Shown: in pieces, positions 3,625-23,609 of the stretch
How positions within the stretch are numbered: the first letter of the stretch is position 1
Layout of the letters: the number at the start of each line of letters is the position of its first letter
Assembly: GCA_045653985.1 (NCBI GenBank)
Contig: JAZOMK010000134.1
Coordinates: 1 to 30,949, forward strand
Source of the DNA: Clostridia bacterium
GTDB lineage: Bacteria; Bacillota; Clostridia; Christensenellales; QALW01
Direction: 5' to 3'
DNA: 30,949 nt
Made by a program: the position numbers and the translations under genes
Notes under the pieces: model-generated
Seen by the model: the letters and a program-made list of their open reading frames with translations, nothing else
The model's database searches: none
Told to the model about the DNA's origin: nothing

Positions 3625-6600
3625 CTATTTATAAATGTATAATACATAATCTGTTCCGGCAGGTTTTTCAGGGAGATTATATGACGAACTTAAAAATGTG
3701 TTAAAAGTTGCTTCTGCGCTATAAGTATTATTTATCGGGTCAAACCAACGATAATGATATGTTGTGAAGCGACTAAGGTTTTTTAGTGTACCCGTTGCAG
3801 TACCGTTTTCTGAGTTTGGATTTTCAGCAACGGAAGTATCAGAGAAGTTAAAAAAGTAAATAACAATTTTACTATTGTCGGCATTTGACGCAATATTTGC
3901 AAATGCACCTTCTGAACGTGTTAAATAATCAAGTTCGTATGAAGTGCTAACTTCTGAACCGAATCTTGGCATAAGGTTCCACCAATCACCAACAGTGTCT
4001 TCGAAGAAGGTACGCATATATCCCATTTGAATTGCACTTGGATAGTTAAGGGAATCTTCCCAAGTTGCCGCCTGCTTTTCTTCAGGGGTGATGGTATCAA
4101 CTTTGTCAGTTGTGGTAGAATCTTCATCATATTCACTTAAATAACACCAGGTATCTTGCCCACCCCATGCGTATCCGAAAACACCGCCTAAATAAGAAAT
4201 CCATCCTTGTGCACGAGCACCAAAGTTTTTAGTCCAAAGATAACAATATCTGCCTTCATAATTTACGACAGGCTTACCTTGACCATATTCCATGGCATTG
4301 TATGCGTAAATGTGATTGTTGCTTTCGTTATGAAGTGAAGGAGACCATTGCATAGCATAGAAATCGTGTTCCTCTAAGGATGCAAAAGAAGAATCTCTTA
4401 CACCGCGAACATTTGAAACACCTTCCATATGTGCCGTGAGGGGACTATTATATGCATCGTATTTTGATATATATTGGGCAACGTAATGATACGGATTATT
4501 AATGTAGCTCCATTCTTTGTGTCCGTTAAAGTTGTCACGTTGCCAGAAGAAGTCATTATCAACTTCCTGTCCCATTGACCACATTACGGGGAAGGCTGAA
4601 TATCTTGCAACCCAATAGCGGCAGATGCGTTCAAGTTCTGCTTTTGCACTGTCGGAAAGGTCATACATAAGATATTCGTAAGTGCCATCGTCATTTTGTG
4701 TTGTTGGGTGCGTTGCTGTGCCTACAACTGTATCAGAGAACCCACCGAAGTTATTGATGAACGTCGTCATACTTGATGGATAGAAGAAGGATGCATTTAC
4801 GTGCGTAAGTCCTGCATCTGCAATAATTTCAAACTTTTGGTCATATTCTCTTAATGCCGATATATCCACAATAGAGATACCATCTTCAAAATTGAATTTT
4901 GCACTTAATGGTTGTGATTGAATAACGGAATAACCGTTTTGAACTCTGTTAGCAGTGATGGTTTCAACCATTTCAACAGTTTCACCGCCAAGCCCCCAAT
5001 GGGTATCTGCTAAGTAGAAGAAAGGAGTGTTATCGTCATACATAAAATATTTAACGTTTTCAACAACTTTAACTCGGCCGTGTTTGTATAAATCAAGTTC
5101 GCCTGAATATTTTGTGCAAGTTACGGTATTTGTTTGGTTGTGCAACCCTGTATTTTCACTGTCGGTACATACTGTTGTATACGACCATTGGCCCTCAGTA
5201 GGACACATAAAGCGAATGCGCCATATATCTCCACCATCCCAGAAACCTGGAACAGTATAGGTGGTTGTTCCGTTTGTGAGGATAAGGTTAACGTCAACAT
5301 CACGATAGGGGTCATCGTATTTTTTGTTTGAAATAAGTGTAATTTCGTTTGTGCGCCAGGTTTCTGCGTCCGATACACTTACAGGCTGTTCTTGATTAAC
5401 AATAGCCTCGGTAATTGAAAAATCAACAATAGCAATTTCAGCAATTTCGGTGACGTTTATTGAATGGAATCCAAACCTCCAATATTGTCCCACACCAATA
5501 TCACTTGAAAGAACTTTAATAGTGGTTCGGTACGTGTGCCAGACGTTATTTTTCGATTCATCGGCAACAGGAAAGTTTAAATAATAGTTCCCGTTATGGT
5601 CTGTTGAAAATGAAGTTTCGGTTTTTGTTCTTATCAGAGGAGTGAAGGGCATATAAACCGAATCGATGTTTCTTGCTGCTATTTTGTATTTGAAACTGAT
5701 TGTATATTCGCCTGCTCTTTTAATAAGTGGCATGATATCAAGCATTGGTGTTTGATAGTTTGCTGCGTTTTCGTTTATTTGTGCAACAAGGAACTGATTT
5801 CCGTCTTCAATTTTAAGGTCAAGCTTAATGTTATCGGATGCATCATCTAAATCAAACCAATCAGTATCGGTTATAAAATTGATACCTTCAAAAGTGCTGT
5901 TTGCCGTGCTGATTGTTTCTGTTTTTGCGGGTGTGCCAAGAACATCGCTGTCTTCTAATTCGAAAACAGAATCATTGGTATTTGTGGCTTTTGCATATTC
6001 TTTTGCGGATTTTCCGTAATTGTAAAGAGCTTTTGAAAGCTCGCCAACAGAGGCATCATTATGTTTTGCTCCAACGTATGCGCAAACATTGTATGAAACG
6101 GTACTGATTGTGTTGCCATCTTTTACAAGCTTTAACGTAAAGACTTTGTCAAACTCTGTCGCTTTTAAATCGTGGGTGTAGTATGTATATGAACCGTCGG
6201 TATTTTTTGTAAGCTCTGAACGATTGATTTTTGTGCCGTTAACGTAAACTTCTACGTTTTCATCATTAAGAAGAAGTTTGAAAAATACGTTGTTTGCATT
6301 TGAAACGTGCACGCCCAATGATTTTACTTTGTTTTCGCTATCGGTGTTGCCGATAACTTCTTTTACACCAACAGGCACGATAAAATCACTTTTATATTCA
6401 GTTATCCAATTATAACTATTCGCAAGAGAATCGGTACGATAGTCTTTATATAACTGTGATTGCGCACCGTATTCAAGCATATCTGCAAGAAGAGCTTTGA
6501 ATTTTTTGTGCTGTGATGAAGTGTAACCAAGTTCCGTTGCCGTTTTGTTTATTTGACGTTGACAATAAAGGGCAACGCTGTAATTTTCGTGTTTTGCAAG

Positions 6601-6936
6601 CAACGTGCCGTCAGAAGCAAAAAGTTCTGCGTTTATGGTGTCTGTCATACACTGTGGATTGATACCTAAGTATGAGTATTTATACATTTTTTGCGTTGAA
6701 TCATAACTTCCATTAACTTCTGTTACTTTGCCGGAAGATGATGTGAAACGCATATAAGCGTTACTTAAATCTGTATCTGAAGTTGCAAAATAATCAAGCG
6801 TAAGCGTTGAACCAAGATTAAGAACTGCACCGTTTATTTTTGAAGCAGGTTCTTCATCTTCTGCAAAAATTGTGCCTAAATTTACGCAAGAAAGCAATAA
6901 TATAAATGATAATAAAATACTTATAAGTTTCTTCAT
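3625..6936 (-). CDS. Secreted multidomain protein, 1103 aa: signal peptide + unrecognised duplicated domain + CBM-like domain + DUF5060 + DUF4038 (GH140/apiosidase-like) + C-terminal beta domain
   Basis: MKKLISILLSFILLLSCVNLGTIFA signal peptide (RBS AAGGA 8 nt before ATG 6936); 'VPGFWDGGDIWRIRFM.P.EG.W.Y.T' (DUF5060-like); 'TPFFYLADTHW', 'YWVARYSAFPVMWSMGQEVDND', 'VVNYEGRY', 'YAWGGQDTW' (DUF4038-like); clearly homologous to 20103-21887 and 21897-23609. Confidence 0.75.
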   Translation of the reverse strand: MKKLISILLSFILLLSCVNLGTIFAEDEEPASKINGAVLNLGSTLTLDYFATSDTDLSNAYMRFTSSSGKVTEVNGSYDSTQKMYKYSYLGINPQCMTDTINAELFASDGTLLAKHENYSVALYCQRQINKTATELGYTSSQHKKFKALLADMLEYGAQSQLYKDYRTDSLANSYNWITEYKSDFIVPVGVKEVIGNTDSENKVKSLGVHVSNANNVFFKLLLNDENVEVYVNGTKINRSELTKNTDGSYTYYTHDLKATEFDKVFTLKLVKDGNTISTVSYNVCAYVGAKHNDASVGELSKALYNYGKSAKEYAKATNTNDSVFELEDSDVLGTPAKTETISTANSTFEGINFITDTDWFDLDDASDNIKLDLKIEDGNQFLVAQINENAANYQTPMLDIMPLIKRAGEYTISFKYKIAARNIDSVYMPFTPLIRTKTETSFSTDHNGNYYLNFPVADESKNNVWHTYRTTIKVLSSDIGVGQYWRFGFHSINVTEIAEIAIVDFSITEAIVNQEQPVSVSDAETWRTNEITLISNKKYDDPYRDVDVNLILTNGTTTYTVPGFWDGGDIWRIRFMCPTEGQWSYTTVCTDSENTGLHNQTNTVTCTKYSGELDLYKHGRVKVVENVKYFMYDDNTPFFYLADTHWGLGGETVEMVETITANRVQNGYSVIQSQPLSAKFNFEDGISIVDISALREYDQKFEIIADAGLTHVNASFFYPSSMTTFINNFGGFSDTVVGTATHPTTQNDDGTYEYLMYDLSDSAKAELERICRYWVARYSAFPVMWSMGQEVDNDFFWQRDNFNGHKEWSYINNPYHYVAQYISKYDAYNSPLTAHMEGVSNVRGVRDSSFASLEEHDFYAMQWSPSLHNESNNHIYAYNAMEYGQGKPVVNYEGRYCYLWTKNFGARAQGWISYLGGVFGYAWGGQDTWCYLSEYDEDSTTTDKVDTITPEEKQAATWEDSLNYPSAIQMGYMRTFFEDTVGDWWNLMPRFGSEVSTSYELDYLTRSEGAFANIASNADNSKIVIYFFNFSDTSVAENPNSENGTATGTLKNLSRFTTYHYRWFDPINNTYSAEATFNTFLSSSYNLPEKPAGTDYVLYIYK

Positions 6937-6961
6937 ATAGGGCATCCTTTCGGTAAACGTT

Positions 6962-9523: not shown

Positions 9524-12500
9524 ATGAAAAAATTGATTTCCATTGCTCTTGCATTGGCAATGACTCTCAGCAGCATTGCGTTTATTGGTGCATCAGCGGC
9601 AACAGAAGTACCCGAAGGATACGTATGGAGTAAAAACCTTGTTCCGTCAGAATATTCTGATTTTGACAGCCTTCAGGTTGGTACAGACCCAATCGCAACA
9701 TCAAACAACCTTATGATATATGGTGGCAGCACAAACGTAAACGTTGTTTATGATGCACAAAAAGGTAGCAACGTTCTTAATTGGACGGGTAATGCTAACT
9801 ACATTGCTCCTAGATGGAACATTGGCGGACTTTTAAAGGATGTTGCACAGGACAGAGGCTTATCTTCACTTACGGTAAAGGTTTCCGTTGATATTAAGTT
9901 GAATAACTCGGTAGATAAAACTGCAGTTGGTTCAGTAAGCAACGTTGGCGATTTTGTTTTGAATGGCGCAAACGGAGTTACCGGAATAATGCTTCAGGAA
10001 AACTTTGGTAATAAAACCGGAACATGGTATACCGTTACGGGTGAATTTACTTTAAGCGAAGCAGATATTCAGTCAATCAATATGGCTGATAATAAATATA
10101 ACTACGGTTTGGCTTTTAGCGGATTCTTTACAGGCGTGCCTTACGGTCATATTGATAACGTAACCGTTCAGGTGCTTGTCCCTGCAGGATATGATTGGAG
10201 CGACAATATTGTTCCTGCAGAGTATTCGAATTTTGATTCTCTTGCAGTTGGCACAGACCCTATTGCAACATCAAATAACTTTATGATATATGGCGGCAGC
10301 ACAAACGTAAACGTTGTTTATGATGCACAGAAAGAAAGTAATGTTCTTAATTGGACAGGTAGCGCTAACTACACTGCACCCAGATGGAACATTGGCGGTA
10401 TTTTAAAAGATTTTGCAGAAGAAAAAGGCTTAACAACTCTTAAAGTAAAAGTATCTATGGATATTAAAATGAACAGCACAGCGGCACCTGATGCAACAAA
10501 TACCGTTGGTAACGTTGGTGATTTTGTTTTAAATGGTGCAAATGGTGTTAGCGGAATAATGCTTCAGGAGAACTTTGGTAATGCAATGGGCACCTGGTTT
10601 ACCGTTACAGGTGAATTTACTTTAACTGAAGCTGATATCCAATCAATAGATATGACAGATAACAGTAAAAACTATGGTATAACCTTTAAAGGTTGGGTTA
10701 CAGGTGTACCTTACGGGCACATTGATAACGTAGTAGTTAAGGTATACGCGCCTGTTGAATTAATACCCACCCCCGAAGCTACAGTAGAACCTACAGAAGA
10801 ACCCACACCTACAGCAACAGCTACACCTACGCCCGAACCAACACCTACGCCCGAACCAACACCTTTTAATGGCTTGGTAAACGGAAATGCTGAAAACGGT
10901 ACTGAAAACTGGGGCATAATGGCAGGTAATAACGGTAGTGTAGAACAAGTTTCAGGTGGTGCAAAGGATACAGAACATTCAATTAAGTTCACACCCGGCG
11001 ACAGATTCGCCTGGGGACAGATGGGTTCAATTGCATATGACCTTACACCTCAGATAAACGCTGAAGGCGCAGGCACATATAAGCTTTCATTCTACATTAA
11101 AGCAGAAGAAGGCAAGGGTGGCTTGTTTAACGTTGGTGTTGGCTCAATGTATTGGCAGACCGGCGTTGGTGCCAAGTATGACCCCAATGACCAGACCAAA
11201 TTAACTGATGTTCCAACAGCATATGTTCTTCAACTTGTTGAAATCACAGACCAGTGGCTCAAGATTAACGTTGAGTTCGAAATAACAGAAGAATATTTGG
11301 CACAGATTGCACTTGTACACGCAGTTCGTCCTAATCAGGCAAAATTATTCTTCCGTCTTGATGGCAGCGTTGGTGCTTATAAAACAGCAGGCACAGAATT
11401 CTCATATTTTGTTGATGAAGTTGTTTTAAGCAAGAAAGAAGCAGTTCCCGTAAAGGAACTTACAAATACTGATGCTGAAAATGGTATTGAAAATTGGGGT
11501 ATAATGTACGGCCAGAACGGTTCTGTTGAACAAGTTTCAGGCGGTGCAAAGGATACAGAACATTCAATTAAGTTCACACCCGGTGAAAGATTCGCGTGGG
11601 GACAGATGGGCTCCATCGCATATGACCTTTCACCTGCAATTATTGTTGATGAAGAAAATGGTTATTTCGGTAATGGCGCAGGTAATTATGAACTTTCCTT
11701 CTATATTAAAGCAGAAGAAGGCAAGGGTGGCTTATTTAACGTTGGCGTTGGCTCAATGTATTGGCAGGTAAATGCAGGCGCAACTTATGAAGGAACAAAC
11801 AAAACAACAGTTCCAACAGCTTACTTTATTAAGCTTGTTGAAATTGATGACCAGTGGCAAAAGGTTACTGTAAGATTTGAAATTACCGATGAATATCTTG
11901 AACAGATTGCGCTTGTTCATGCGGCAAGACCTAACCAGGCAAAATTGTTCTTCCGTCTTGATGGCAGTGTTGGTGCTTATGAAACGGCAGGTAGTGAATT
12001 CAGCTATTTTGTTGACGAAGTATCAATCAAGTATATGAACGGTGTTATTGCAGGTGCGAACGTTGATGTTGGAAGCACACTTACCGTAAATTATTATGCT
12101 AAACTTACAGCAGACTATACTTCAGCACAGATGGTGTTCACACGCAATGATAAGTCCATAACAGTTGATGGTGTTCTTGAAGATGGTATGTATAAGTTTG
12201 CTTATACGGGAATCAACCCACAGTGTATGAATGATAATATTTCGGCACAGCTTATCCTTGGTGATGAAGTTCTTGACGTAATGGAAAATTACAGCGTAAA
12301 GAAATATTGTGATAATCAGGCATCAAAAACATTCTCTGAAATAGGCATTTCCGAAGAAAAGTATGAAGCACTTAAAGCCTTTATGGCAAATATGCTTATT
12401 TACGGTGCAGAAGCACAGAAGCATATGGACTATAATACTGACAATCTTGTAACTGCAAATAGTGCTTGGATTGAAGAAGCAAAAACTTCATATGAAATTC

Positions 12501-12868
12501 CCGTTGCAGATATAAACATTGAGGGCAATACTGATGTAAGCAATAAGGTATATTCAGTAACACTTACTCTTTCAAACGTAAATCAGGTTACATTTAAGTT
12601 GGTTATAACTGACGAGGTTGAAGTTTATCTTAACGGCGAAGAAGCAGAGGTTGTTGACGGTTTTGTAAGGTCAAAGGCAATCAAAGCAGCCGATTTTGAT
12701 GAAGCACAGGTTTTAACTATCAAAAAAGATGGCGGAGTAATAAGTCAGGTAGAATATGCCGTAAACGACTATATTGCCAATAAGTATAACAGTGCAACAG
12801 TTGGTGAAATCGTATGTGCACTTAACAATTACGGAAAAGCTGCTGTAAACTATAAAGCTGCACAATAA
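9524..12868 (+). CDS. Secreted multi-module protein, 1114 aa: signal peptide, 2 type-A CBM4/9-like modules, PT linker, 2 type-B CBM4/9/22-like modules, C-terminal unrecognised duplicated domain; no catalytic domain recognised
   Basis: Signal peptide MKKLISIALALAMTLSSIAFIGASA; repeats 'NLVP.EYS.FDSL.VG' x2 and 'NG(N/D)AENG.ENWGIM.G.NGSVEQV...[13 protein letters not shown]' x2; C-terminus aligns by eye with the N-terminal domain of 3625-6936. Confidence 0.75.
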   Translation: MKKLISIALALAMTLSSIAFIGASAATEVPEGYVWSKNLVPSEYSDFDSLQVGTDPIATSNNLMIYGGSTNVNVVYDAQKGSNVLNWTGNANYIAPRWNIGGLLKDVAQDRGLSSLTVKVSVDIKLNNSVDKTAVGSVSNVGDFVLNGANGVTGIMLQENFGNKTGTWYTVTGEFTLSEADIQSINMADNKYNYGLAFSGFFTGVPYGHIDNVTVQVLVPAGYDWSDNIVPAEYSNFDSLAVGTDPIATSNNFMIYGGSTNVNVVYDAQKESNVLNWTGSANYTAPRWNIGGILKDFAEEKGLTTLKVKVSMDIKMNSTAAPDATNTVGNVGDFVLNGANGVSGIMLQENFGNAMGTWFTVTGEFTLTEADIQSIDMTDNSKNYGITFKGWVTGVPYGHIDNVVVKVYAPVELIPTPEATVEPTEEPTPTATATPTPEPTPTPEPTPFNGLVNGNAENGTENWGIMAGNNGSVEQVSGGAKDTEHSIKFTPGDRFAWGQMGSIAYDLTPQINAEGAGTYKLSFYIKAEEGKGGLFNVGVGSMYWQTGVGAKYDPNDQTKLTDVPTAYVLQLVEITDQWLKINVEFEITEEYLAQIALVHAVRPNQAKLFFRLDGSVGAYKTAGTEFSYFVDEVVLSKKEAVPVKELTNTDAENGIENWGIMYGQNGSVEQVSGGAKDTEHSIKFTPGERFAWGQMGSIAYDLSPAIIVDEENGYFGNGAGNYELSFYIKAEEGKGGLFNVGVGSMYWQVNAGATYEGTNKTTVPTAYFIKLVEIDDQWQKVTVRFEITDEYLEQIALVHAARPNQAKLFFRLDGSVGAYETAGSEFSYFVDEVSIKYMNGVIAGANVDVGSTLTVNYYAKLTADYTSAQMVFTRNDKSITVDGVLEDGMYKFAYTGINPQCMNDNISAQLILGDEVLDVMENYSVKKYCDNQASKTFSEIGISEEKYEALKAFMANMLIYGAEAQKHMDYNTDNLVTANSAWIEEAKTSYEIPVADINIEGNTDVSNKVYSVTLTLSNVNQVTFKLVITDEVEVYLNGEEAEVVDGFVRSKAIKAADFDEAQVLTIKKDGGVISQVEYAVNDYIANKYNSATVGEIVCALNNYGKAAVNYKAAQ
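10766..10864 (+). repeat. Pro/Thr/Glu-rich linker (in-frame)
   Basis: PTPEATVEPTEEPTPTATATPTPEPTPTPEPTP. Confidence 0.9.
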
Positions 12869-12879
12869 GGAGAATTTTT

Positions 12880-12996
12880 ATGAAAAAAGATTATTCGACA
12901 CCTGAAGTTGATATCATATCACTTTATAATAACGACGTTTTTACGGATAGTGCCAGCGATGGTAATATAGACCTGGGCGATGAGGATATTTTATAA
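12880..12996 (+). CDS. Unannotated 38-aa small protein MKKDYSTPEVDIISLYNNDVFTDSASDGNIDLGDEDIL (YxxP-leader-type acidic peptide)
   Basis: Strong RBS AAGGAG overlapping the TAA of the upstream gene, 7 nt before ATG 12880; stop TAA 12994-12996; MKKxYxxPxV...DVxTxS pattern recalled from small peptides of Clostridia/Bacteroidota; below the ORF-track size cutoff. Confidence 0.8.
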   Translation: MKKDYSTPEVDIISLYNNDVFTDSASDGNIDLGDEDIL

Positions 12997-13064
12997 TGGC
13001 TGTTTATACGCCAAATCTTTGATTTGACTTCAAATTTTCAGTTGAAATAAGGCTTTTACCTATT

Positions 13065-13093
13065 TTGACATCAACATAGGCATTATAAATAAT
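13065..13093 (+). promoter_or_regulatory. Putative SigA promoter for the second CBM-like protein
   Basis: TTGACA (13065-13070), 17 bp, AATAAT (13088-13093). Confidence 0.5.
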
Positions 13094-13096
13094 TTT

Positions 13097-13129
13097 ATTG
13101 AAACAGTGCCTGAAAAGCACTGTTTCAAT
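13097..13129. promoter_or_regulatory. Perfect 13-bp inverted repeat (operator or 5' stem-loop)
   Basis: ATTGAAACAGTGC-ctgaaaa-GCACTGTTTCAAT; no U-tract follows on the + strand. Confidence 0.55.
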
Positions 13130-13183
13130 GCCCAATAAAAGATTTTAAGAATTAAAAACATTATTATGAATGGGGAGTTTTTT

Positions 13184-16100
13184 ATGAAAAAATTACTTTC
13201 TTTCGTACTTGCATCGATAATAGTTATTAGCAGTATTGCTGTTATCAATGCAACAAATGCACCTGACGGATACGAGTGGAGTGAAAATCTGCTTTCAGCA
13301 GAATATTCTAACTTTGATAATCTTCAGGTAGGCACGGACCCTATTGCAAATTCAAATAATTTGATGATTTATGGTTCAAGTACCGACGTAAACGTTGTGT
13401 ATGATGAACAAAAAGGAAGTAACGTTCTTAATTGGACGGGGAGTGCAAATTATCATGCTCCAAGATGGAACGTAGGCGGTCTTTTAAAAGCTTTTGCAGA
13501 ACAAAACAATTTAAAAACTCTTACCGTAAAAATTTCAGCTGATATCAAGTTAAATAATACAGTTGATAAAACTGCAACAAATACGGTAGGTAACGTAGGT
13601 GATTTTGTTCTTAATGGCGTAAACAGTCAGAGCATAATGCTTCAGGAAAACTTCGGCAATAAAATGGGCACGTGGTTTACGGTTTCCGGCGAGGTAACCT
13701 TAACTGAAGCAGATATCCAAGCTATTGATATGGCTGATAACAAGAAAAATTGCGGTATCACTTTTAGCGGTTTTGTTACGGGTAAGCCTTACGGACATAT
13801 TGATAACGTAACCGTTCAGGTGCTTGTGCCTGAAAAGGTTGAAGTTAAGCAGATGACTAACGGAAACGCTGAAAACGGCACTGAAAATTGGGGCATAATG
13901 TATGGGCAGAATGGCTCCGTTGCTCAAGTTTCAGGCGGTGCAAACGATACGGCACATTCAATTAAGTTTACACCCGGTGAAAGATTCTCATGGGGACAAA
14001 TGGGCTCCGTTGCTTATGACCTTTCACCTGCAATTATTGTTGATGAACAAAACGGATATGCAGGTAGTGGCGCTGGTAATTATGAGCTTTCGTTCTATAT
14101 CAAAGCGGAGGAAGGCAAAAGCGGAACTTTCAGTCTCGGCTTTGGCTCAATGTATTGGCAGACTGCTGCCGGTGCAAAGTATGATTCCAATGACGCAACA
14201 AAGGTAACCACAGTACCTACGGCACAGAAAATAAAGGATATTGCAATTACAGACCAATGGCAGAAGATTACGGTTCAGTTTGAGGTAACGGAAGCATTCC
14301 TCGAACAAATTGCACTTGTGCATGCGGTAAGACCTAATCAGGCAAAGCTCTTCTTCCGTATTGACGGTAGTGGTGGTGCGTATAAAACAGCAGGAAGCGA
14401 ATTCAGCTATTTCGTTGACGAAGTTGTTTTTTCTAAAAAAACAGCAACACCTGTTGTAACAGCAACACCAACAGCAACGCCAACACCGACAGTTACACCC
14501 GTTGAAACGGCAACACCAACAGCGACGCCAACAGTAACACCTGTTGTAACAGCGACGCCAACAGAAACTCCTGTTGTAACAGCAACGCCAACTCCTACCC
14601 CTACCCCAACAATAATACCAACACCTTTTGCCGGTCTTAAAAATACCGATGCAGAAAGCGGCACTGAAAATTGGGGCATAATGTATGGTCAGAATGGCTC
14701 TGTTGAACAAGTTGCAGATGGTGCAAATGGAAGTGCACATTCAATTAAGTTTACACCCGGTGAGAGATTCTCTTGGGGACAGATGGGTTCAATAGCCTAT
14801 GACATTACACCATATATTAACGAAAAAGGTGCAGGCGAGTATCAGCTTTCATTTTACGTTAAGGCTGAAACAGGCAAAGGAGGAACTTTCAGTCTCGGCT
14901 TTGGCTCAATGTATTGGCAACTTGCATCAGGTGCAAAATATGATTCCAATGATACAACAAAGGTAACAACAGTACCTACTGCACAGAAAATAAAGGATAT
15001 TGCAATTACAGACCAATGGCAGAAGATTACGGTTCAGTTTGAGGTAACGGAAGCATTCCTCGAGCAGATTGCACTTGTACACGCAGTAAGACCCAATCAG
15101 GCAAAATTGTTCTTCCGTATGGATGGAAGCAGTGCGGCGTATAAAACAGCAGGAAGTGAATTCAGCTATTTTGTTGATGAAGTAGTTCTTCTTGCAGGCA
15201 GTGAAATTCCAACACCCACACCCGTGCCAACCCCAACACCTTTTGCAGGCCTTAAAAACGGCAACGCGGAAAGCGGTACTGAAAACTGGGGCATAATGTA
15301 TGGCAATAACGGAACTATAGCACAGGTTTCAGGCGGTGCTAACAATACGGCACACTCAATTAAGTTTACACCCGGTGAGAGATTTTCATGGGGACAGATG
15401 GGCTCAATAGCCTATGACCTTACACCATATATTAACGAAAAAGGTGCTAATAAATATCAGCTTTCATTCTATATTAAGGCAGAGGATGGTAAAGAAGGTA
15501 ACTTTAATCTTGGTATCGGCTCAATGTATTGGCAGACCGGTGTCGGTGCAAAATATGATTCCAATGATACAACAAAGGTAACGACAGTACCGACAGCCTA
15601 CGTGCTTGAGGGAATTTCAATAAACGATGAATGGAAAAAAGTTGTTGTTGAATTTGAATTAACAGAAGAATATTTAGAGCAGGTTGCATTGGTGCATGCA
15701 GTAAGACCCAATCAGGCAAAGCTTTTCTTCCGTCTTGACGGAAATAACGGAGCATACAAAAAGGCAGAAAATGAATTCAGCTATTTTGTTGATGAAGTAG
15801 TTCTTCTTGCAGGTAGTGAAATTCCAACACCCACACCCGTGCCAACCCCAACACCATTTGCAGGCCTTAAAAACGGCAATGCAGAAAGCGGCACTGAAAA
15901 TTGGGGCATAATGTATGGTCAGAATGGCTCTATTGAACAAGTTGCAGGCGGTGTAAACAAAACCGCACATTCAATTAAGTTTACACCGGGCGAAAGATTC
16001 TCGTGGGGACAGATGGGTTCTGTTGCTTATGATATTACACCTTACGTAAACGAGATGGGTGCAGGCAAGTATCAGCTTTCATTCTATATTAAGGCTGAGT

Positions 16101-17137
16101 CAGGTAAGTCAGGTGCTTTTAGTCTTGGCGTAGGCTCAATGTATTGGCAGAATGCTGCCGGTGCAAAGTATGACCCCAATGATGCAACAAAGGTAACGAC
16201 AGTGCCTACTGCGTTTAAGCTAAAAGATATTAATGTAACTGACAAATGGCAACAGATAACTGTTGAGTTTGAATTGACAAAAGAGTATCTTGAACAGATT
16301 GCACTTGTGCACGCAGTAAGACCTAATCAGGCAAAAATTTTCTTCCGCCTTGACGGTAGTAATGGTGCATATAAAAAAGCAGGTAGTGAGTTCAGCTATT
16401 TTGTTGATGAGGTAGTTGTTCTTGCAGGAAAAGATATTCCCACACCAACACCTTTCGCTGGTCTAAAAAACGGCAATGCAGAAAGTGGCACTAAAAACTG
16501 GAGCGTAATGTATGGTCAGAACGGTTCAATAAAGCAAGTTAAGGATGGTGCCAACGGAACAAAGCACTCAATCAAATTTACACCGGGTGCAAGGTTTGAT
16601 TGGGGACAGATGGGCTCCATCGCATATGACATTACTCCTTATATAAATGCCAAAGGAGCAGGCGTATATAAACTGTCCTTCTACATAAAAGCTGAAGAAG
16701 GCAAAGGTGGAAAATTCAGTTTGGGTGTAGGCTCAATGTATTGGCAGACGAAAGAGGGGGCACAATATGACCCCAACAATAAAGCATTGAAAACTACGTT
16801 GCCTACCGCATATAAGATAACAGATATTGAAGTTACTGATGAGTGGCAGTTAGTTGAAGTTGAGTTCAGAATTACAAAAGATTATTTGAAGCAAATAGCT
16901 CTTGTACATGCGGCACGTCCTAACCAGGCACAAATCTTCTTCCGTCTTGACGGCAGCAGTGGAGCATATAAAGCAAAGGGCAGTGAATTCAGCTATTTTG
17001 TCGATGAGGTTGTTTTGAAAATTGACGGCAAGGATAAACCTACCGACAGCGGTGATAAATTGCCTTTAATTACGGTATGTGTTTTAGCGGCATCTGTAAT
17101 TTCAGTATGTATAATTAAAAAGAGAAAGGAAGACTAA
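13184..17137 (+). CDS. Cell-wall-anchored tandem CBM-like protein, 1317 aa: signal peptide, 1 type-A and 5 type-B modules, PT linkers, sortase-like C-terminal sorting signal (start moved to ATG 13184)
   Basis: RBS GGGGAG before [23 protein letters not shown]; five copies of 'N..AE.GT.NW..MYG.NG...QV..G' and 'ALVHA.RPNQA..FFR.DG'; C-terminus KPTDSGD + hydrophobic stretch + KKRKED. Confidence 0.78.
14222..15063 (+). repeat. 83-bp perfect direct repeat (14222-14304 and 14981-15063) between type-B modules 1 and 2
   Basis: gcacagaaaataaaggatattgcaattacagaccaatggcagaagattacggttcagtttgaggtaacggaagcattcctcga occurs twice. Confidence 0.85.
14441..14626 (+). repeat. Long Thr/Pro/Val/Ala-rich linker (in-frame)
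   Basis: [62 protein letters not shown]. Confidence 0.9.
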
Positions 17138-17898: not shown

Positions 17899-20091
17899 AT
17901 GAAAAAATACTTTGAATGTGCTGAAAAAGTAGAAAAAGAATATATATGTCCGCATTTTATTGAAGAAAGCGGACTTTCAAAAGACGAACTTGTAAAAGGC
18001 CTTGAGGAGATATACAATACGTATATTAAAACGGAGTCAATGATGCTTGTGCGTGCAAGAATGATTAAGTTCATTCTTGCAAATGCACAAATTCAGATAG
18101 ACCCTTATAATCCTTTTGCTGATAGAATAAATGAGGGTACAACGTATAATGCTTACGCTGATTGGGATGGCGTAGGTGAAATCTTGTTGCGCAATACTAT
18201 GCGTCCAAGAGTACTTGAAAAGCATATTCCCGAGCTTTTTGAAAAAAGAAATATTGCATACAGTATTGGCTGCATGACTGCTGATGCTGATTATTGGCAT
18301 ACCGTACCTTGCTGGCACGATATTTTATCACTTGGCTTTGTTGGCTTGCTTGAACGAGCAAAACAAGCAAGGGAAAAAAATGATTTAACAAAAGAACAAT
18401 ATGATTTTTATGATTCGGTAATTATAACTTACGAGGCTATTATTGATTACATAAAAAGATTATATGAAATTTCAAAAAACTATGATATTTCCGAATATAC
18501 GAATGCTTTGAAAAATATTGCTTCTAAAAAACCGGAAACACTTTACGAAGCATTGCTTACCGTATATTTATATACCACCATTGAAGAAATAGGTTGCGAA
18601 CGTGCAAGATGTCTGGGTAGAATCGATATTCATTATTATCCTTTTTATGTAAATGATTTAAAAACGGGTAAAAGTGAAGAAGATATAAAGGAACTGTTCA
18701 GATTCTTTTTCGGTAAATTTCATGCGGCACGCAGGTATGCAAATCAGCCTTTAGACCTTTGCGGCGTTGATGTTTACGGCATTAAAGGAGAAAATGAACT
18801 TACCTGGCTGATTCTGGACGTTTGGAATGAACTTGGCTTTGATAACCCAAAAGTACATATACATTGCCATAATGGTATGGATGAAAAAATCATTCCGTAC
18901 TGTATGAATCTTATACGTGATGGCAAAAACTCAATTGTATTTGTCAATGATGAAACAGTATTTAAGGCGTATGATAAAATCGGTATAAGTCAGGAAGAAT
19001 CACGATTGTATGAAGTTCTTGGCTGTTATGAACCCATTATACCGGGTGTGGAAGAACCTTGTATAGGCGGTTCGTGGCTGAATATGGCCAAGGCTATGGA
19101 GTTTTTATTTACCGGTGGTAAGGATAAAATTACGGGATATCAATTCAGCGTATCTACACCGGATACTTTTGAAACATTTGAAGATTTTTACAATGGTTAT
19201 TTAACTCAGCTTGATTATCTTGTTGACTTTGCAAAAAGCTATATTGAAATAAATTCAAGTTATAATATGCAAATAAATCCTTCACCTGTTTATTCAGCAT
19301 CAAGCTCGTATTGCATCGAAAAAGGCAAGGATATATTCAACAAAGGAGCAAAGTACACAAACACTTCAGTAAAATGCTTTGGTATTGGTACGGTTGTTGA
19401 TTCAATTTACGCGGTTAAAAAATATGTTTTTGATGAAAAAAGAATAAGCTTTTCCGAAATGAGAAAAGCTGTTCTCTCAAATTGGAACGGATATGAAGCT
19501 TTGCGGATTGAAATCAGTCGTGATAAAGAAAAATATGGCTGTGGAAATGAAAAAGTAGATAATATTGCAAAAGCAATTTATAAACATCTTTCAAAAAGTC
19601 TTACGGGTAGAAGGAACGGTAGAGAAGGTGTATGGCGAATGGGGGGAGACTCCATTGATTACTCCTTATCCTTTGGTGCTAAAGTGGCGGCAACACCTGA
19701 TGGAAGGTTTGATAAAGAAGCTTTATCAAAAAATCTTTGTGCTACTTTGGGTAAAGATATAAATGGTATAACGGCACTTATTCGTTCAGCAACAACTATT
19801 GACCATACTGATTTTTGTGATGGTATCGTACTTGATTTCTTGCTTCATCCAAGTGCTGTTTCAGGCGAAGATGGTCTTGCAGCAATGTGTGGACTGCTAA
19901 AGGTATATTTTGCACGTGGTGGACTTGCTTTGCAAGGAAATGTTTTCAGTACGGAAGATTTAATTGATGCACAAAAGAATCCCGGCAAATATCCTAGTCT
20001 CCAAGTACGTGTCTGTGGTTGGAATGAGTATTTTGACCGTATGAGTAAGGAAATGCAAGATTTCTTTATTGCACAACTGAAATCAGAATGA
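17899..20091 (+). CDS. Glycyl radical enzyme (PFL-like family), 730 aa; substrate unknown
   Basis: Cys loop 'GCYEP' (19021-19035); C-terminal glycyl radical domain 'AQKNPGKYPSLQVRVCGWNEYF' (RVCGW at 20008-20022); 'ATPDGR...LSKN', 'KYGCG...VD'. Confidence 0.92.
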   Translation: MKKYFECAEKVEKEYICPHFIEESGLSKDELVKGLEEIYNTYIKTESMMLVRARMIKFILANAQIQIDPYNPFADRINEGTTYNAYADWDGVGEILLRNTMRPRVLEKHIPELFEKRNIAYSIGCMTADADYWHTVPCWHDILSLGFVGLLERAKQAREKNDLTKEQYDFYDSVIITYEAIIDYIKRLYEISKNYDISEYTNALKNIASKKPETLYEALLTVYLYTTIEEIGCERARCLGRIDIHYYPFYVNDLKTGKSEEDIKELFRFFFGKFHAARRYANQPLDLCGVDVYGIKGENELTWLILDVWNELGFDNPKVHIHCHNGMDEKIIPYCMNLIRDGKNSIVFVNDETVFKAYDKIGISQEESRLYEVLGCYEPIIPGVEEPCIGGSWLNMAKAMEFLFTGGKDKITGYQFSVSTPDTFETFEDFYNGYLTQLDYLVDFAKSYIEINSSYNMQINPSPVYSASSSYCIEKGKDIFNKGAKYTNTSVKCFGIGTVVDSIYAVKKYVFDEKRISFSEMRKAVLSNWNGYEALRIEISRDKEKYGCGNEKVDNIAKAIYKHLSKSLTGRRNGREGVWRMGGDSIDYSLSFGAKVAATPDGRFDKEALSKNLCATLGKDINGITALIRSATTIDHTDFCDGIVLDFLLHPSAVSGEDGLAAMCGLLKVYFARGGLALQGNVFSTEDLIDAQKNPGKYPSLQVRVCGWNEYFDRMSKEMQDFFIAQLKSE

Positions 20092-20102
20092 GAGGACTTT
20101 AA

Positions 20103-21887
20103 ATGAAAAAAATATTAAGCGCAATACTTTTGATGGTAATGCTTTTTGCATATACCGCTTGTGGTAATAACGAAGAAGAACAACCTAAAGAAGAGCTTAT
20201 CAAGGCGGGGGAAGTTAATTTTCTTACTGAAACATGGGTGTGCACTGAGCTTACTTTTCAGTCGTTAAAAGAATATAACAACGGCAAGCAGTTTGAAGTT
20301 GTAATGGATGCCGTTTTTACAAACAGAACAACGGGAACAACACTTACCATACCTGCGTTCTGGGATGGCGGAAATATTTTTAAAGTTCGTTTTGCACCTA
20401 CAGAAAAGGGCATTTGGGATTTTAAAACTATCTGCGAAAGTGATGATAGTCTTCACGATTTTTCAGGTACCGTCGGTGCAAATCCATATAGTGGTGAACT
20501 TGATATCTACAAGCACGGCTTTGTAACTGTTGAAGCAGGTAAAAAATATTTTGTTTATGCTGACGGCACACCATTCTTCTATTTGGGTGATACCCATTGG
20601 AATATGTTTGGTGAAGAATTTGATTCAGCAGGACCTTATGCTGGCGATTTACAAACGGATTCTCATTTCAAATATATTGTTGATAAACGTGTTGAACAGG
20701 GATATACAGTATATCAAAGCCAGCCCGGAGATACACCCTATTCGGTAGAATCAGGCTTCAACGAAAAGGATATTGAAGGCTTTAAGGAAGCCGATAAGTA
20801 TTTTCAATATATTGCTGAAAAAGGGCTTGTTCACGCAAACTCGCAGTTCTTTTTTACAAGCACTATGACGAGAATTCTCGGCAGAAAAACAGAATATATT
20901 GAAAATCTCTCACGTTATTGGGTTGCACGCTTTGGAGCATATCCCGTAATGTGGACTCTTGCACAGGAAATGGATAATGATTTCCTTGTGGAAAATAACA
21001 ATAATAATGATTGGGATTATACCAATAATCCTTGGGTTCAGGTAGCAGAATATATCAATAAATATGATGCATATAATCATCCCCTTACGGGGCACCAGGA
21101 AAATGCAAAAAGAACCACAATAAACGGAATGGCGGCAGGCTATGACCCAACTGTTGCTTCTGATAATAATGGCGTTTCACTTTTTGCTACGAAAGAAGCT
21201 TCAGAAAAAGCGGGGCATAACTGGTGGGGCGCTCAGTGGCAACCATCCCTTGATGGAAAATTGCAGCTTGGCGACTTTGGCGTAGCAAAAGAATATTGGA
21301 TGTCGGAAAAACCTGCTGTTATGTATGAATCCCGTTATGACAGACTTTGGACTATGGAATTTGGTGCCCGCGCACAAGGTTGGATTGCATATCTTAACGG
21401 TATGTACGGCTATGGCTACGGTGCACAGGATATCTGGGCATACGATAATGATTTCTTAAAAGATACTTCTTGGTCAGATGGTGTAGAAACGGTTACGGTT
21501 GAAGACCATCAGATGCGTTGGTCGGAAAGCATAGAATTACCTTCAGGTTATCAGGTGGGCTATATGCGCCAATTCTTTGAAAAGCTTGAATGGCATAAGT
21601 TAGTGCCAACCTTTAACAGCGAAACTTATTTTAAGCCAAACAAACTTGAAACAAACCTCTATGCCTGTGCAACTGATGAAAACAACGTTTACGTTGTATA
21701 TTTCTACAGTAAGCATATGCGTACGGGCACTATACAGAGACTTGATGCCAACGCAACTTATACGGCAACATGGTACAACCCAAGAACAAACGAATATACG
21801 AAAATAGAAGAATTTGAAGGCGAATACTACGAGGTTCCGTTAAGACCGGACCGCGAAGATTGGGTATTGCTTGTTACAAAAAATTAG
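20103..21887 (+). CDS. Lipoprotein DUF5060 + DUF4038 (GH140/apiosidase-like) + C-terminal beta domain, 594 aa
   Basis: Lipobox FAYTAC-G; 'IPAFWDGGNIFKVRFAPTEKGIWDFKT', 'TPFFYLGDTHW', 'YWVARFGAYPVMWTLAQEMDND', 'VMYESRY', 'YGYGAQDIW'. Confidence 0.8.
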   Translation: MKKILSAILLMVMLFAYTACGNNEEEQPKEELIKAGEVNFLTETWVCTELTFQSLKEYNNGKQFEVVMDAVFTNRTTGTTLTIPAFWDGGNIFKVRFAPTEKGIWDFKTICESDDSLHDFSGTVGANPYSGELDIYKHGFVTVEAGKKYFVYADGTPFFYLGDTHWNMFGEEFDSAGPYAGDLQTDSHFKYIVDKRVEQGYTVYQSQPGDTPYSVESGFNEKDIEGFKEADKYFQYIAEKGLVHANSQFFFTSTMTRILGRKTEYIENLSRYWVARFGAYPVMWTLAQEMDNDFLVENNNNNDWDYTNNPWVQVAEYINKYDAYNHPLTGHQENAKRTTINGMAAGYDPTVASDNNGVSLFATKEASEKAGHNWWGAQWQPSLDGKLQLGDFGVAKEYWMSEKPAVMYESRYDRLWTMEFGARAQGWIAYLNGMYGYGYGAQDIWAYDNDFLKDTSWSDGVETVTVEDHQMRWSESIELPSGYQVGYMRQFFEKLEWHKLVPTFNSETYFKPNKLETNLYACATDENNVYVVYFYSKHMRTGTIQRLDANATYTATWYNPRTNEYTKIEEFEGEYYEVPLRPDREDWVLLVTKN

Positions 21888-21896
21888 GAGAATAAT

Positions 21897-23609
21897 ATGA
21901 GGAAATTCAGTGCAGAGTGTTGGGTTGCCTGCGAAATTGATTTTGAATCATCGATGATTTATGATAATGCAGAACAATTCAATGTAATGCTTGATGTGGT
22001 GTTTACCCATTCTGATGGAACTGAGATGAAAATACCTGCCTTCTGGTATGAAAAAAATACGTTTAAGGTCAGATTTGCACCTACCAAAGAAGGTCGTTGG
22101 CTTTTTAAGACTATGTGCAAAACTGATTCATCACTTAATAATATTTGCGGCGAAGTAGATGCACAAAAATATTCAGGTGAGCTTGAAATATATAAGCATG
22201 GCTTTGTTAAGAATAACGGCAATAAATTTTTTGTTTATGATGATAATTCTCCATTTTTCTATCTTGGCGATACTCATTGGGGAATGTATGGTGAGGAATT
22301 AGATTCCTTGGGGGAATATGCCGGGTATATAAAAAGCTTTTCTGAATATAACGGTACTGACTCTCATTTTAAATATATTGTTGACAGAAGAGTTAAACAA
22401 GGCTTTACCGTATATCAAAGCGAACCGGGCGGTAGAATTCTTTATAACCTTAAAGACGGCGTTGATGAAAATGATATTGAGGGTTTTAAAGAAGCAGACA
22501 GATATTTTTCATACATAGCAGAAAAAGGTTTGGTTCATGCAAATGCGCAGTTTTTCTATATTTCAAATATGGTGCCTGAAATTTATGAAGATACTGAGTA
22601 TCTTGAAAAATTAACAAGGCTATGGGTTGCAAGATATTCGGCATATCCTGTTTTATGGACTCTTGCCCAGGAAGCGGATAATGATTTTTATGCTGAGCGT
22701 ACTCCAAATGCTCAATGGAATTATATGAATAATCCATGGATTCTTGTTGCTAAGTACATACATAAATATGATGCCTATAAACATCCGTTAACTTGTCATC
22801 AGGAAAATACTAACTTTACCACTGTAACCGGCAGAGGTACATCAGGAGATAAAGGCATAAAACCCGATAATGAAGGACGCTCTCTTTTTGCTTCTAAAGA
22901 GATAAGCAAAAAAACGGGGCATAATTGGTGGGGAGTACAATGGCAACCTTATTTGGGCAATTACGTTGAAACGGGACTTAACCACTCAAGTGAGTTTGAA
23001 CAAGAAATAATAAATGATTATTGGCAAAGTGAAAAAATTTCTGTTCTTTATGAATCTCGTTATGATTGTATGTGGACAATGGAGTTTGGTGCCCGTGCAC
23101 AAGGCTGGATTGCATATCTTAACGGCTTTTATGGCTATGGTTACGGTGCACAGGATATTTGGGCATACAATAATGATTTTATGAAGCGTGGCTTGTGGGA
23201 TGACGGATATGAATATGTTATCCAATTAGCAAAATACATTACGTGGCCACAAGCAGTTGAACTTCCGTCAGCAAAACAAATGGGAATAATGAGAAAGTTC
23301 TTCGAAGAAAATGAATGGCACAAGTTGATTCCTGACTTCAAAAATCAAAATCACTTTATTCCTGATGAAACAGAAGAAAATTTATATGCCGTTTCAACTA
23401 ATAATTCCGAAAAAATAGTAGTTTATCTGTACGGCAAAAATACTTTAACAGGTAAGCTTAAAGGTCTTGAAGGTACTTATGAGATATCGTGGTTTGACGT
23501 AAGAAGTGGTAAATATATAAAAATTGGAACTACATCTGCCACGGAATATGAACTGCCTCAAAGACCGGACAATAATGACTGGGTAGTTTTAGCCCAAAAA
23601 ATAATTTAA
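21897..23609 (+). CDS. DUF5060 + DUF4038 (GH140/apiosidase-like) paralog without signal peptide, 570 aa
   Basis: Same motifs as the upstream paralog ('IPAFW....FKVRFAPT.EG.W', 'PFFYLGDTHW', 'WTLAQE.DND', 'YESRY'); N-terminus MRKFSAECWVACEIDF has no hydrophobic signal. Confidence 0.8.
   Translation: MRKFSAECWVACEIDFESSMIYDNAEQFNVMLDVVFTHSDGTEMKIPAFWYEKNTFKVRFAPTKEGRWLFKTMCKTDSSLNNICGEVDAQKYSGELEIYKHGFVKNNGNKFFVYDDNSPFFYLGDTHWGMYGEELDSLGEYAGYIKSFSEYNGTDSHFKYIVDRRVKQGFTVYQSEPGGRILYNLKDGVDENDIEGFKEADRYFSYIAEKGLVHANAQFFYISNMVPEIYEDTEYLEKLTRLWVARYSAYPVLWTLAQEADNDFYAERTPNAQWNYMNNPWILVAKYIHKYDAYKHPLTCHQENTNFTTVTGRGTSGDKGIKPDNEGRSLFASKEISKKTGHNWWGVQWQPYLGNYVETGLNHSSEFEQEIINDYWQSEKISVLYESRYDCMWTMEFGARAQGWIAYLNGFYGYGYGAQDIWAYNNDFMKRGLWDDGYEYVIQLAKYITWPQAVELPSAKQMGIMRKFFEENEWHKLIPDFKNQNHFIPDETEENLYAVSTNNSEKIVVYLYGKNTLTGKLKGLEGTYEISWFDVRSGKYIKIGTTSATEYELPQRPDNNDWVVLAQKII

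Follow-up and report, generated by a model that had tools for sequence, protein, structure and literature searches.

Precursors of peptides that ribosomes make and that are modified after translation (RiPPs) may carry the core on a protein-sized N-terminal part, as those with NHLP and Nif11 leaders do, and borosins occur in both fused and split forms. Signal peptidases of the SipW type (S26B, Ser/His) act on dedicated substrates, TasA and TapA in Bacillus. In lasso-peptide systems a YxxPxL...T leader is bound by PqqD-type recognition proteins (PMC10368454, PMC7533575), and the tailored lasso clusters of the paeninodin/pseudomycoidin type also encode an HPr-kinase-like kinase and a nucleotidyltransferase (PMC7533575, PMC10368454). 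Here we describe a locus that shares features with these systems in a 30,949-nucleotide (nt) stretch of a Clostridia genome, contig JAZOMK010000134.1 (the window). It encodes a nine-residue acidic motif, FELEDSDVL, within a secreted enzyme, directly after an unannotated domain, and a similar motif at the C-terminus of a separate small peptide. The comparative data give good support to the view that the cis motif and the peptide C-terminus are one conserved element, which is either fused or provided in trans. On balance we lean towards the reading that FELEDSDVL is the fused, leaderless acidic core of a small ribosomal peptide family and that it acts as a short linear motif docking on the ~290-amino acid (aa) domain.

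The host gene (3625..6945, minus strand) encodes a secreted, 1106-aa protein. A signal peptide is followed by the unannotated domain (~285 aa, residues 37-320; 5986..6837), a seven-residue linker TNTNDSV between the last domain helix and the motif (5965..5985), the motif itself (residues 328-336; 5938..5964), a carbohydrate-binding module (CBM)-like module, DUF5060 (residues 527-593), and an apiosidase-like catalytic domain of glycoside hydrolase family 140 (GH140; residues 630-983). The enzyme is assigned to the GH140 apiosidase-like proteins by Pfam matches to PF13204 (109.7 bits) and PF16586 (75.1 bits), both above the cut-offs. Upstream of the linker the protein reads ALYNYGKSAKEYAKA, and GTP follows downstream of the motif. 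The original prediction, made from the letters of the window and a list of its open reading frames, had placed the motif directly after the domain and likened it to the C-terminus of the peptide, IDLGDEDIL. Both claims are borne out: the minus strand at 5938-5964 translates to FELEDSDVL seven residues past the domain, and over the 9 residues the two segments share 4 identical positions and 3 conservative pairs, just as had been counted.

The 38-aa peptide that ends in IDLGDEDIL is encoded on the plus strand (12880..12996), next to a second copy of the domain (12041..12865, plus strand). Recognized by protein comparison, this copy ends a CBM-rich protein of 1114 aa (9524-12868) and has no cis motif (...NYKAAQ, then stop); it is 44% identical to the N-terminal domain of the 1106-aa protein (E 2e-61). 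The ribosome-binding site AAGGAG (12867..12872, plus strand) overlaps the TAA stop codon of the 1114-aa gene (12866-12868) and lies 7 nt before the ATG of the peptide gene. By alignment with related peptides, the 38 residues comprise a leader-like part (K-x-Y-x-x-P ... T-D; 12880-12948) and a core (S-A-S-D-G-N plus IDLGDEDIL; 12949-12993, with the motif at 12967-12993). Examples of core peptides are SASDGNIDLGDEDIL and FELEDSDVL.

Secreted multi-domain proteins often contain acidic linkers of low complexity, and two acidic segments of nine residues could in principle resemble each other by chance. The genome that bears the window (G000; C-numbers denote its contigs) is a 2.1-Mb assembly of 465 contigs, 76% complete. 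A regular expression for the motif, run over 2,486,499 residues of six-frame open reading frames (ORFs) from the whole genome, gave 20 matches, 13 of which stand directly after a copy of the domain; 10 of these are fused in cis, and the neighboring peptide carries the other 3. The three trans peptides are encoded by genes of 35-38 aa that start 13-20 nt past the stop codon. The motif is also kept in paralogs, in relatives and in metagenome contigs, and is found either in cis or in trans to a given domain, as detailed below. A chance origin can thus be practically dismissed, and the match is confirmed as being beyond chance.

Among the complete domain copies of this genome with sequence beyond them, the motif stands 8-14 residues after the terminal ...YNYGxSAxxYxxA or on the next small ORF, with C313 as the exception. 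It is internal on C351, C427, C371, C362, C358 and C333 and in the 1106-aa gene, ends the protein in other copies, where a stop codon comes directly after FNLEEDEL, FNLEEDIL or FDLEDDIL, and lies on a small ORF just past the stop on C134, C86 and C103. The domain was found in at least 2236 sequence clusters (E up to 0.001), where it is mostly C-terminal and has no tail after it; the motif follows it in the ~25 closest clusters, as well as in the same-genus relatives. We sampled 182 distinct domain ends: in 124 the protein terminates with the domain, the motif is C-terminal in 16 and internal in 22, and of the rest 14 continue without it and 6 bear other short tails. The cis motif, present in 38 of the 182 ends at a median of 7.5 residues past the end of the domain profile, has the consensus F-[DE]-L-[GE]-[DE]-E-D-[DVI]-L; a variant of 8 residues reads F-D-L-E-x-D-I-L.

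The two forms of supply exclude each other at the same domain. Using the peptide profile, we compared distinct domain copies from the window-bearing genome and 13 relatives of the same genus. A peptide gene starts no more than 120 nt downstream of 12 of the 14 C-terminal domains without the motif, versus none of the seven with it, a split with a hypergeometric probability of ~3e-4 among copies that are paralogs and hence non-independent. The similarity between cis and trans sequences reaches into the G/D/N/S-rich residues before the motif, and does not extend to the first ~23 residues of the peptide. Since these residues look like a lasso-type YxxP leader tied to a PqqD/S26-like cassette (see below), a feature that the original prediction had missed, the cis copy is best taken as corresponding to the core only. 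The exclusion and the similarity beyond the motif lend good support to the tethering that the original prediction had inferred, FELEDSDVL being the attached counterpart of the element that the free peptide provides. In metagenome contigs with domains of 33-40% identity, small genes follow three of four representatives, and the two of these that were read (L047, L048) are both of the acidic-peptide type. The family members P0179, P0183 and P0186 each follow a protein ending in the domain. Two tandem acidic motifs, 10-20 residues apart, were observed in the fused tails of P0017, P0019 and P0029 and in a 65-aa free peptide (L040).

An alignment of 14 peptides is characterized by an invariant Tyr, a Pro three residues on in at least 90% of the sequences, alternating hydrophobic residues, the signature D-h-h-T-x-S-G (h, hydrophobic), and a variable acidic tail. 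Used as a profile, it retrieved 37 unnamed members of the family from public data, none of them with a Pfam family. The peptide has no match in Pfam or NCBIfam even at E 10, and a feature search of the ESM Atlas with it returned unnamed clusters only. The leader resembles the lasso YxxPxL...T pattern in having a hydrophobic residue two positions after the Pro, and differs from it in a Tyr-to-Thr spacing of 17 rather than 15. A YxxP peptide gene with no domain nearby was observed directly after a trpB-like gene at C201:5497-5592 (minus strand; L016, with the tail ...LPFDEFD) and at G011:C6:95222-95326 (L077, ...LPFDPFFLN).

Two PqqD genes were found in the window-bearing genome; both match PF05402 above the cut-off and have orthologs in relatives, which places them with the B1-type recognition proteins. 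One of them (C50:3-645, L051) precedes a separate gene for a 145-aa S26/SipW-like peptidase, an arrangement seen also in G007 (L062:7438-8132). The same two parts are encoded by one fused ORF in G008 and G019, where PqqD is recognized by Pfam, and, as judged by eye, apparently also in G004 (L084, L085, L086); the G019 fusion begins with MKKYSTPDVII, which is itself similar to a peptide leader. The 145-aa protein has visible G-x-S-M-x-P, H-R and G-D-N boxes. It has no Pfam match at E 0.001, scores 24-30 bits with TIGR02228 (archaeal-type signal peptidase I) against a cut-off of 51.85, and matches SipW weakly as well. The second PqqD gene (C71:861-2661, L050) lies beside genes for an RmlA-like nucleotidyltransferase and an HprK-like P-loop protein. 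All these components are brought together in G022, a genome of another genus, where a single operon beside a peptide gene comprises PqqD, S26-like, nucleotidyltransferase and HprK-like genes (L068:4090-6698). In a metagenome contig (L065:850-4041) the order is domain protein, peptide, small dockerin protein, HprK-like, PqqD, S26-like, and nucleotidyltransferase. The HPr-rel-A system (TIGR04352/TIGR04353) shows a resemblance only: HprK_rel_A and PqqD_rel_X, whose cut-offs are 200 and 35 bits, give scores of 12-19 bits.

The peptide profile and the S26-like gene have an identical presence/absence pattern in 41 related genomes (19 with both, 22 with neither), although these genomes are mutual relatives and the counts overstate their independence; every domain-positive genome of this sample has the cassette. 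Of 8 peptide-positive genomes in a wider set of 151 from the order, 7 have the S26-like gene, and 5 more genomes have distant S26-like homologs with no peptide detected. Two alternatives were considered and rejected. PF13471, the B2 transglutaminase-like leader peptidase, has no match in the 76%-complete genome, and the two complete cassettes (L065, L068) contain neither a B2 peptidase nor an Asn-synthetase-like cyclase (no genome-wide search with PF00733 was made), which speaks against a true lasso system. Export of the double-glycine type by a C39 ABC transporter is disfavored by the lack of a conserved GG before the core and of any PF03412 match in the same incomplete genome.

The domain itself belongs to no Pfam or NCBIfam family, with just sub-threshold Ig-like or Pgp3 noise in these libraries, and fold searches found no solved relative of the whole domain, returning generic Ig/FN3/CBM56-like sandwiches alone. 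An AlphaFold2 model of residues 30-345, based on a 126-row alignment, has a mean predicted local distance difference test (pLDDT) score of 93.5 and a predicted template modelling (pTM) score of 0.88. The predicted fold consists of two Ig-like beta-sandwiches with a helical hairpin after each; the two sandwich-plus-hairpin halves fit an internal duplication. In the AlphaFold Database and the ESM Atlas the domain is a widespread module of Bacillota proteins, where it is combined with NEAT, LamG, ricin, transglutaminase, beta-helix, leucine-rich repeat, endonuclease and other modules. At least 18 stretches of the window-bearing genome encode the domain, and genomes of the genus, which is of ruminant-gut origin, have up to 22 copies.

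Docking of the motif on the domain was assessed by modelling a trans case. In the natural in-frame arrangement on C103 the domain is followed by two TAA stops, five codons and the peptide; it was modelled as a single chain with TAA read as Gly, using an alignment that included fused homologs and left out free peptides. In the AlphaFold2 model of this read-through product the linker and the leader have pLDDT below 50, and the last ~10 residues (FDLPEDELL) reach ~87 and form beta-bridges. Such a pattern is the usual signature of a docked peptide and would be an indirect indication of binding. Taken with the gene fusions and the translational coupling, this one model suggests that the motif physically docks on the domain, and we judge it fairly probable that the motif is a ligand of the domain.

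The beta-bridges of the C103 fusion model, and the fact that the motif is always within ~20 residues of the domain end, might also be taken to mean that the motif belongs structurally to the domain, as a complementing strand or cap required for folding, or else that it is a mere acidic flexible linker with no partner. The original prediction had offered a complementing strand as one of its two options. This option is unlikely: the domain is modelled as complete with the motif unbound, at the high scores given above, whereas donor-strand complementation implies a missing strand and a domain unfoldable alone. In addition, the 124 domain ends that stop at the domain do so before any such tail, the copies on C313, L035 and L043 are devoid of the motif both in cis and in trans, and a plain linker would not hold F, L and L at fixed positions. 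We therefore find a structural or linker role quite improbable.

A more serious alternative is that the motif is read by a partner other than the domain. The HprK-like kinase or the nucleotidyltransferase might do so as tailoring enzymes of the cassette, or else some receptor or polymer at the cell surface, or a metal ion; the proximity of motif and domain would then mean no more than that the domain and the peptide gene are duplicated and moved about as one 3' cassette, with an occasional fusion. The same acidic tails do occur on peptides away from the domain, and the cassette does contain the HprK-like P-loop protein and nucleotidyltransferases known from tailored lasso clusters (PMC7533575). 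The motif of the 1106-aa protein is undocked in its own model, and the domain is acidic overall. However, an independent reader would not readily account for the strict cis/trans exclusion at the same domain, nor for the preservation of the motif as a conserved island in otherwise variable linkers of more than 30 distinct fused proteins. Moreover, the motif attains its pLDDT of ~87 in a model that contains the domain alone as a partner, and the fused copies are without the leader that PqqD-dependent enzymes would need. We thus regard a reader other than the domain as possible but rather unlikely, and retain docking on the domain as the preferred explanation.

Several observations weigh against this explanation. 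First, the part of the original prediction that called the motif a ligand, partly supported by the C103 model, is not borne out in the very protein for which it was made: in the model of the 1106-aa protein the motif does not pack onto the domain and is unbound (pLDDT 40-70), with the last helix running to within 1-2 residues of it. Since the cis linker of this protein is very short, its motif may bind the domain of another molecule and not its own. The positive C103 model, for its part, is a single run on an artificial read-through product, and its high pLDDT is indirect evidence of docking. Second, the domain has a mean net charge of -14.5 with a few conserved basic columns, so that it could bind an acidic peptide only through a local basic patch or with the help of a bridging cation. 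Third, the motif follows the domain in paralogs and close relatives, internal cases included, but distant homologs with an internal domain have no cis motif. Fourth, about half of the peptide genes of the genus do not follow a recognizable domain copy, according to a hand comparison of coordinate tables, so that the motif is not exclusive to the domain and the peptide system is broader; domain-free neighbors other than the trpB-like genes include AraC-like genes. Finally, a Sec signal is absent from the peptide and the search for an exporter gave none, with no C39 peptidase found in the 76%-complete genome, and the relatedness of the genomes noted above tempers the co-occurrence with the S26-like gene.

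On the preferred reading, the following scheme can be proposed. The ancestral arrangement was probably a secreted protein that ends in the domain (...YNYGxSAxAYxxA, then stop), followed by a translationally coupled gene for a peptide of 35-65 aa. The first ~23 residues of the peptide (K-x-Y-x-x-P-x-h-x-h-h ... D-h-h-T-x-S-G) would constitute the leader, recognized by the PqqD-type protein; the S26/SipW-like peptidase that is encoded beside this protein or fused to it would probably take the leader off, with a putative cleavage site near the serine of T-x-S-G, between this residue and the x before it. The functional end of the peptide would be its C-terminal F-D-L-x-E-D-D-x-L. Within the genus, the core seems to have been fused to the domain repeatedly, either at the C-terminus or, in proteins such as the GH140-like enzyme whose domain is N-terminal, as a motif within a linker. 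Once fused, it would be exported together with the Sec protein and would not need the leader. The site of action is likely to be extracellular.

The window sequence is present in bovine and sheep gut metagenomes. A bovine metatranscriptome contig of ~98.5% identity covers positions 12510-12977, that is, the end of the 1114-aa gene, its stop codon and most of the peptide ORF. The RNA contig depth is ~0 between 12978 and 13154, where a DNA run covers 12871-13080. These data are compatible with co-transcription of the two genes and termination after the peptide gene, without proving either. A hairpin scan located a 15-bp hairpin 3' of the peptide gene (13097..13129), which was called terminator-like on the minus strand. 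At position 12930, strains in the bovine metatranscriptome and metagenome differ by T>G, which changes Asn to Lys at codon 17 as read by hand, a case of strain variation within the peptide leader. Programmed read-through or frameshifting as a link between domain and peptide was rejected, because the peptide is in frame after two stops on C86 and C103 and out of frame in the window, and because every peptide gene is provided with a ribosome-binding site and a start codon of its own, GTG in some cases.

Other surface proteins are encoded nearby. A plus-strand gene (13166-17137) specifies a 1323-aa protein of repeated CBM-like modules with a C-terminal hydrophobic stretch and a basic tail that resemble a sortase signal; it is without the ~290-aa domain, so that the neighboring surface proteins differ in their C-terminal ends. 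At window positions 17899-20091 and 20103-23609, a glycyl-radical-enzyme gene lies among surface CBM proteins and two more DUF5060/apiosidase-like genes recognized by Pfam.

As to the purpose of the pair, we can offer a guess, namely that it serves the assembly or anchoring of secreted glycan-degrading enzymes. In its broadest form the idea is speculative, and we hold it with considerable doubt: a two-component surface system of rumen Clostridia in which acidic peptides, matured by the PqqD plus S26-like cassette and possibly tailored by the kinase or nucleotidyltransferase, would plug into the ~290-aa receptor module on dozens of secreted glycoside hydrolases and adhesins, and in which the cis copies would let proteins bind one another's modules, an analogue of cohesin-dockerin pairing that assembles or anchors extracellular enzymes. 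The motif provides a first handle on the role of a nameless domain that occurs on many secreted enzymes and adhesins of Bacillota. The pairing of PqqD with an S26-like protein may represent a new way of leader-peptide processing, and would tie RiPP-type machinery to the cell-surface enzyme apparatus instead of to antibiotics. Should the pair indeed assemble or anchor fiber-degrading enzymes, it would bear on how non-cellulosomal rumen bacteria organize their glycan-degrading machinery.

The domain, the peptide family and the PqqD/S26-like pairing have no family name in the libraries that we searched, and we found no paper describing them; there are partial counterparts among known systems. With lasso systems the locus shares: i) a leader-like Y-x-x-P-x-hydrophobic part with a Thr close to the presumed leader/core junction; ii) a small PqqD-family protein that is either split from or fused to a peptidase, as in the split and fused lasso B proteins; and iii) an HprK-like P-loop protein and nucleotidyltransferases in the same cassette. 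In contrast to lasso systems, the peptidase is S26/SipW-like and not of the B2 type, the two cassettes seen contain no cyclase, and the cores are linear and highly acidic without a consistent ring pattern between position 1 and Asp/Glu at 7-9. The core can also be fused to a large secreted protein. The latter feature recalls precursors of the NHLP, Nif11 and borosin types, in which a short C-terminal core on a large folded protein has a counterpart in a stand-alone short precursor. Here, however, it is not a cytoplasmic leader but a module of a Sec-exported enzyme or adhesin that makes up the large part, the motif may be fused at an internal position, and no modifying enzyme is evident for the fused form.

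The presumed leader peptidase resembles the SipW-type signal peptidases in the three sequence boxes of the 145-aa partner of PqqD and in its weak NCBIfam matches. It differs from them in scoring far under the cut-offs, in lacking a membrane anchor at the N-terminus, in its coupling or fusion to a PqqD domain, and in that the leader of its presumed substrate is not a signal peptide. A further parallel is the cohesin-dockerin system of rumen Clostridia, which likewise pairs a non-catalytic module recurring on many secreted enzymes with a small acidic element; one related locus (L065) also encodes a dockerin protein. The two systems have no sequence or fold relation, and Pfam finds neither cohesin nor dockerin in the 1106-aa and 1114-aa proteins. 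The partner in the present case is a linear motif of nine residues rather than a folded Ca-binding module, and it may be supplied as a separate, leader-bearing peptide. The mechanisms invoked here, a leader/core peptide with its PqqD recognition protein and the docking of a motif on a domain, are nevertheless of known kinds.

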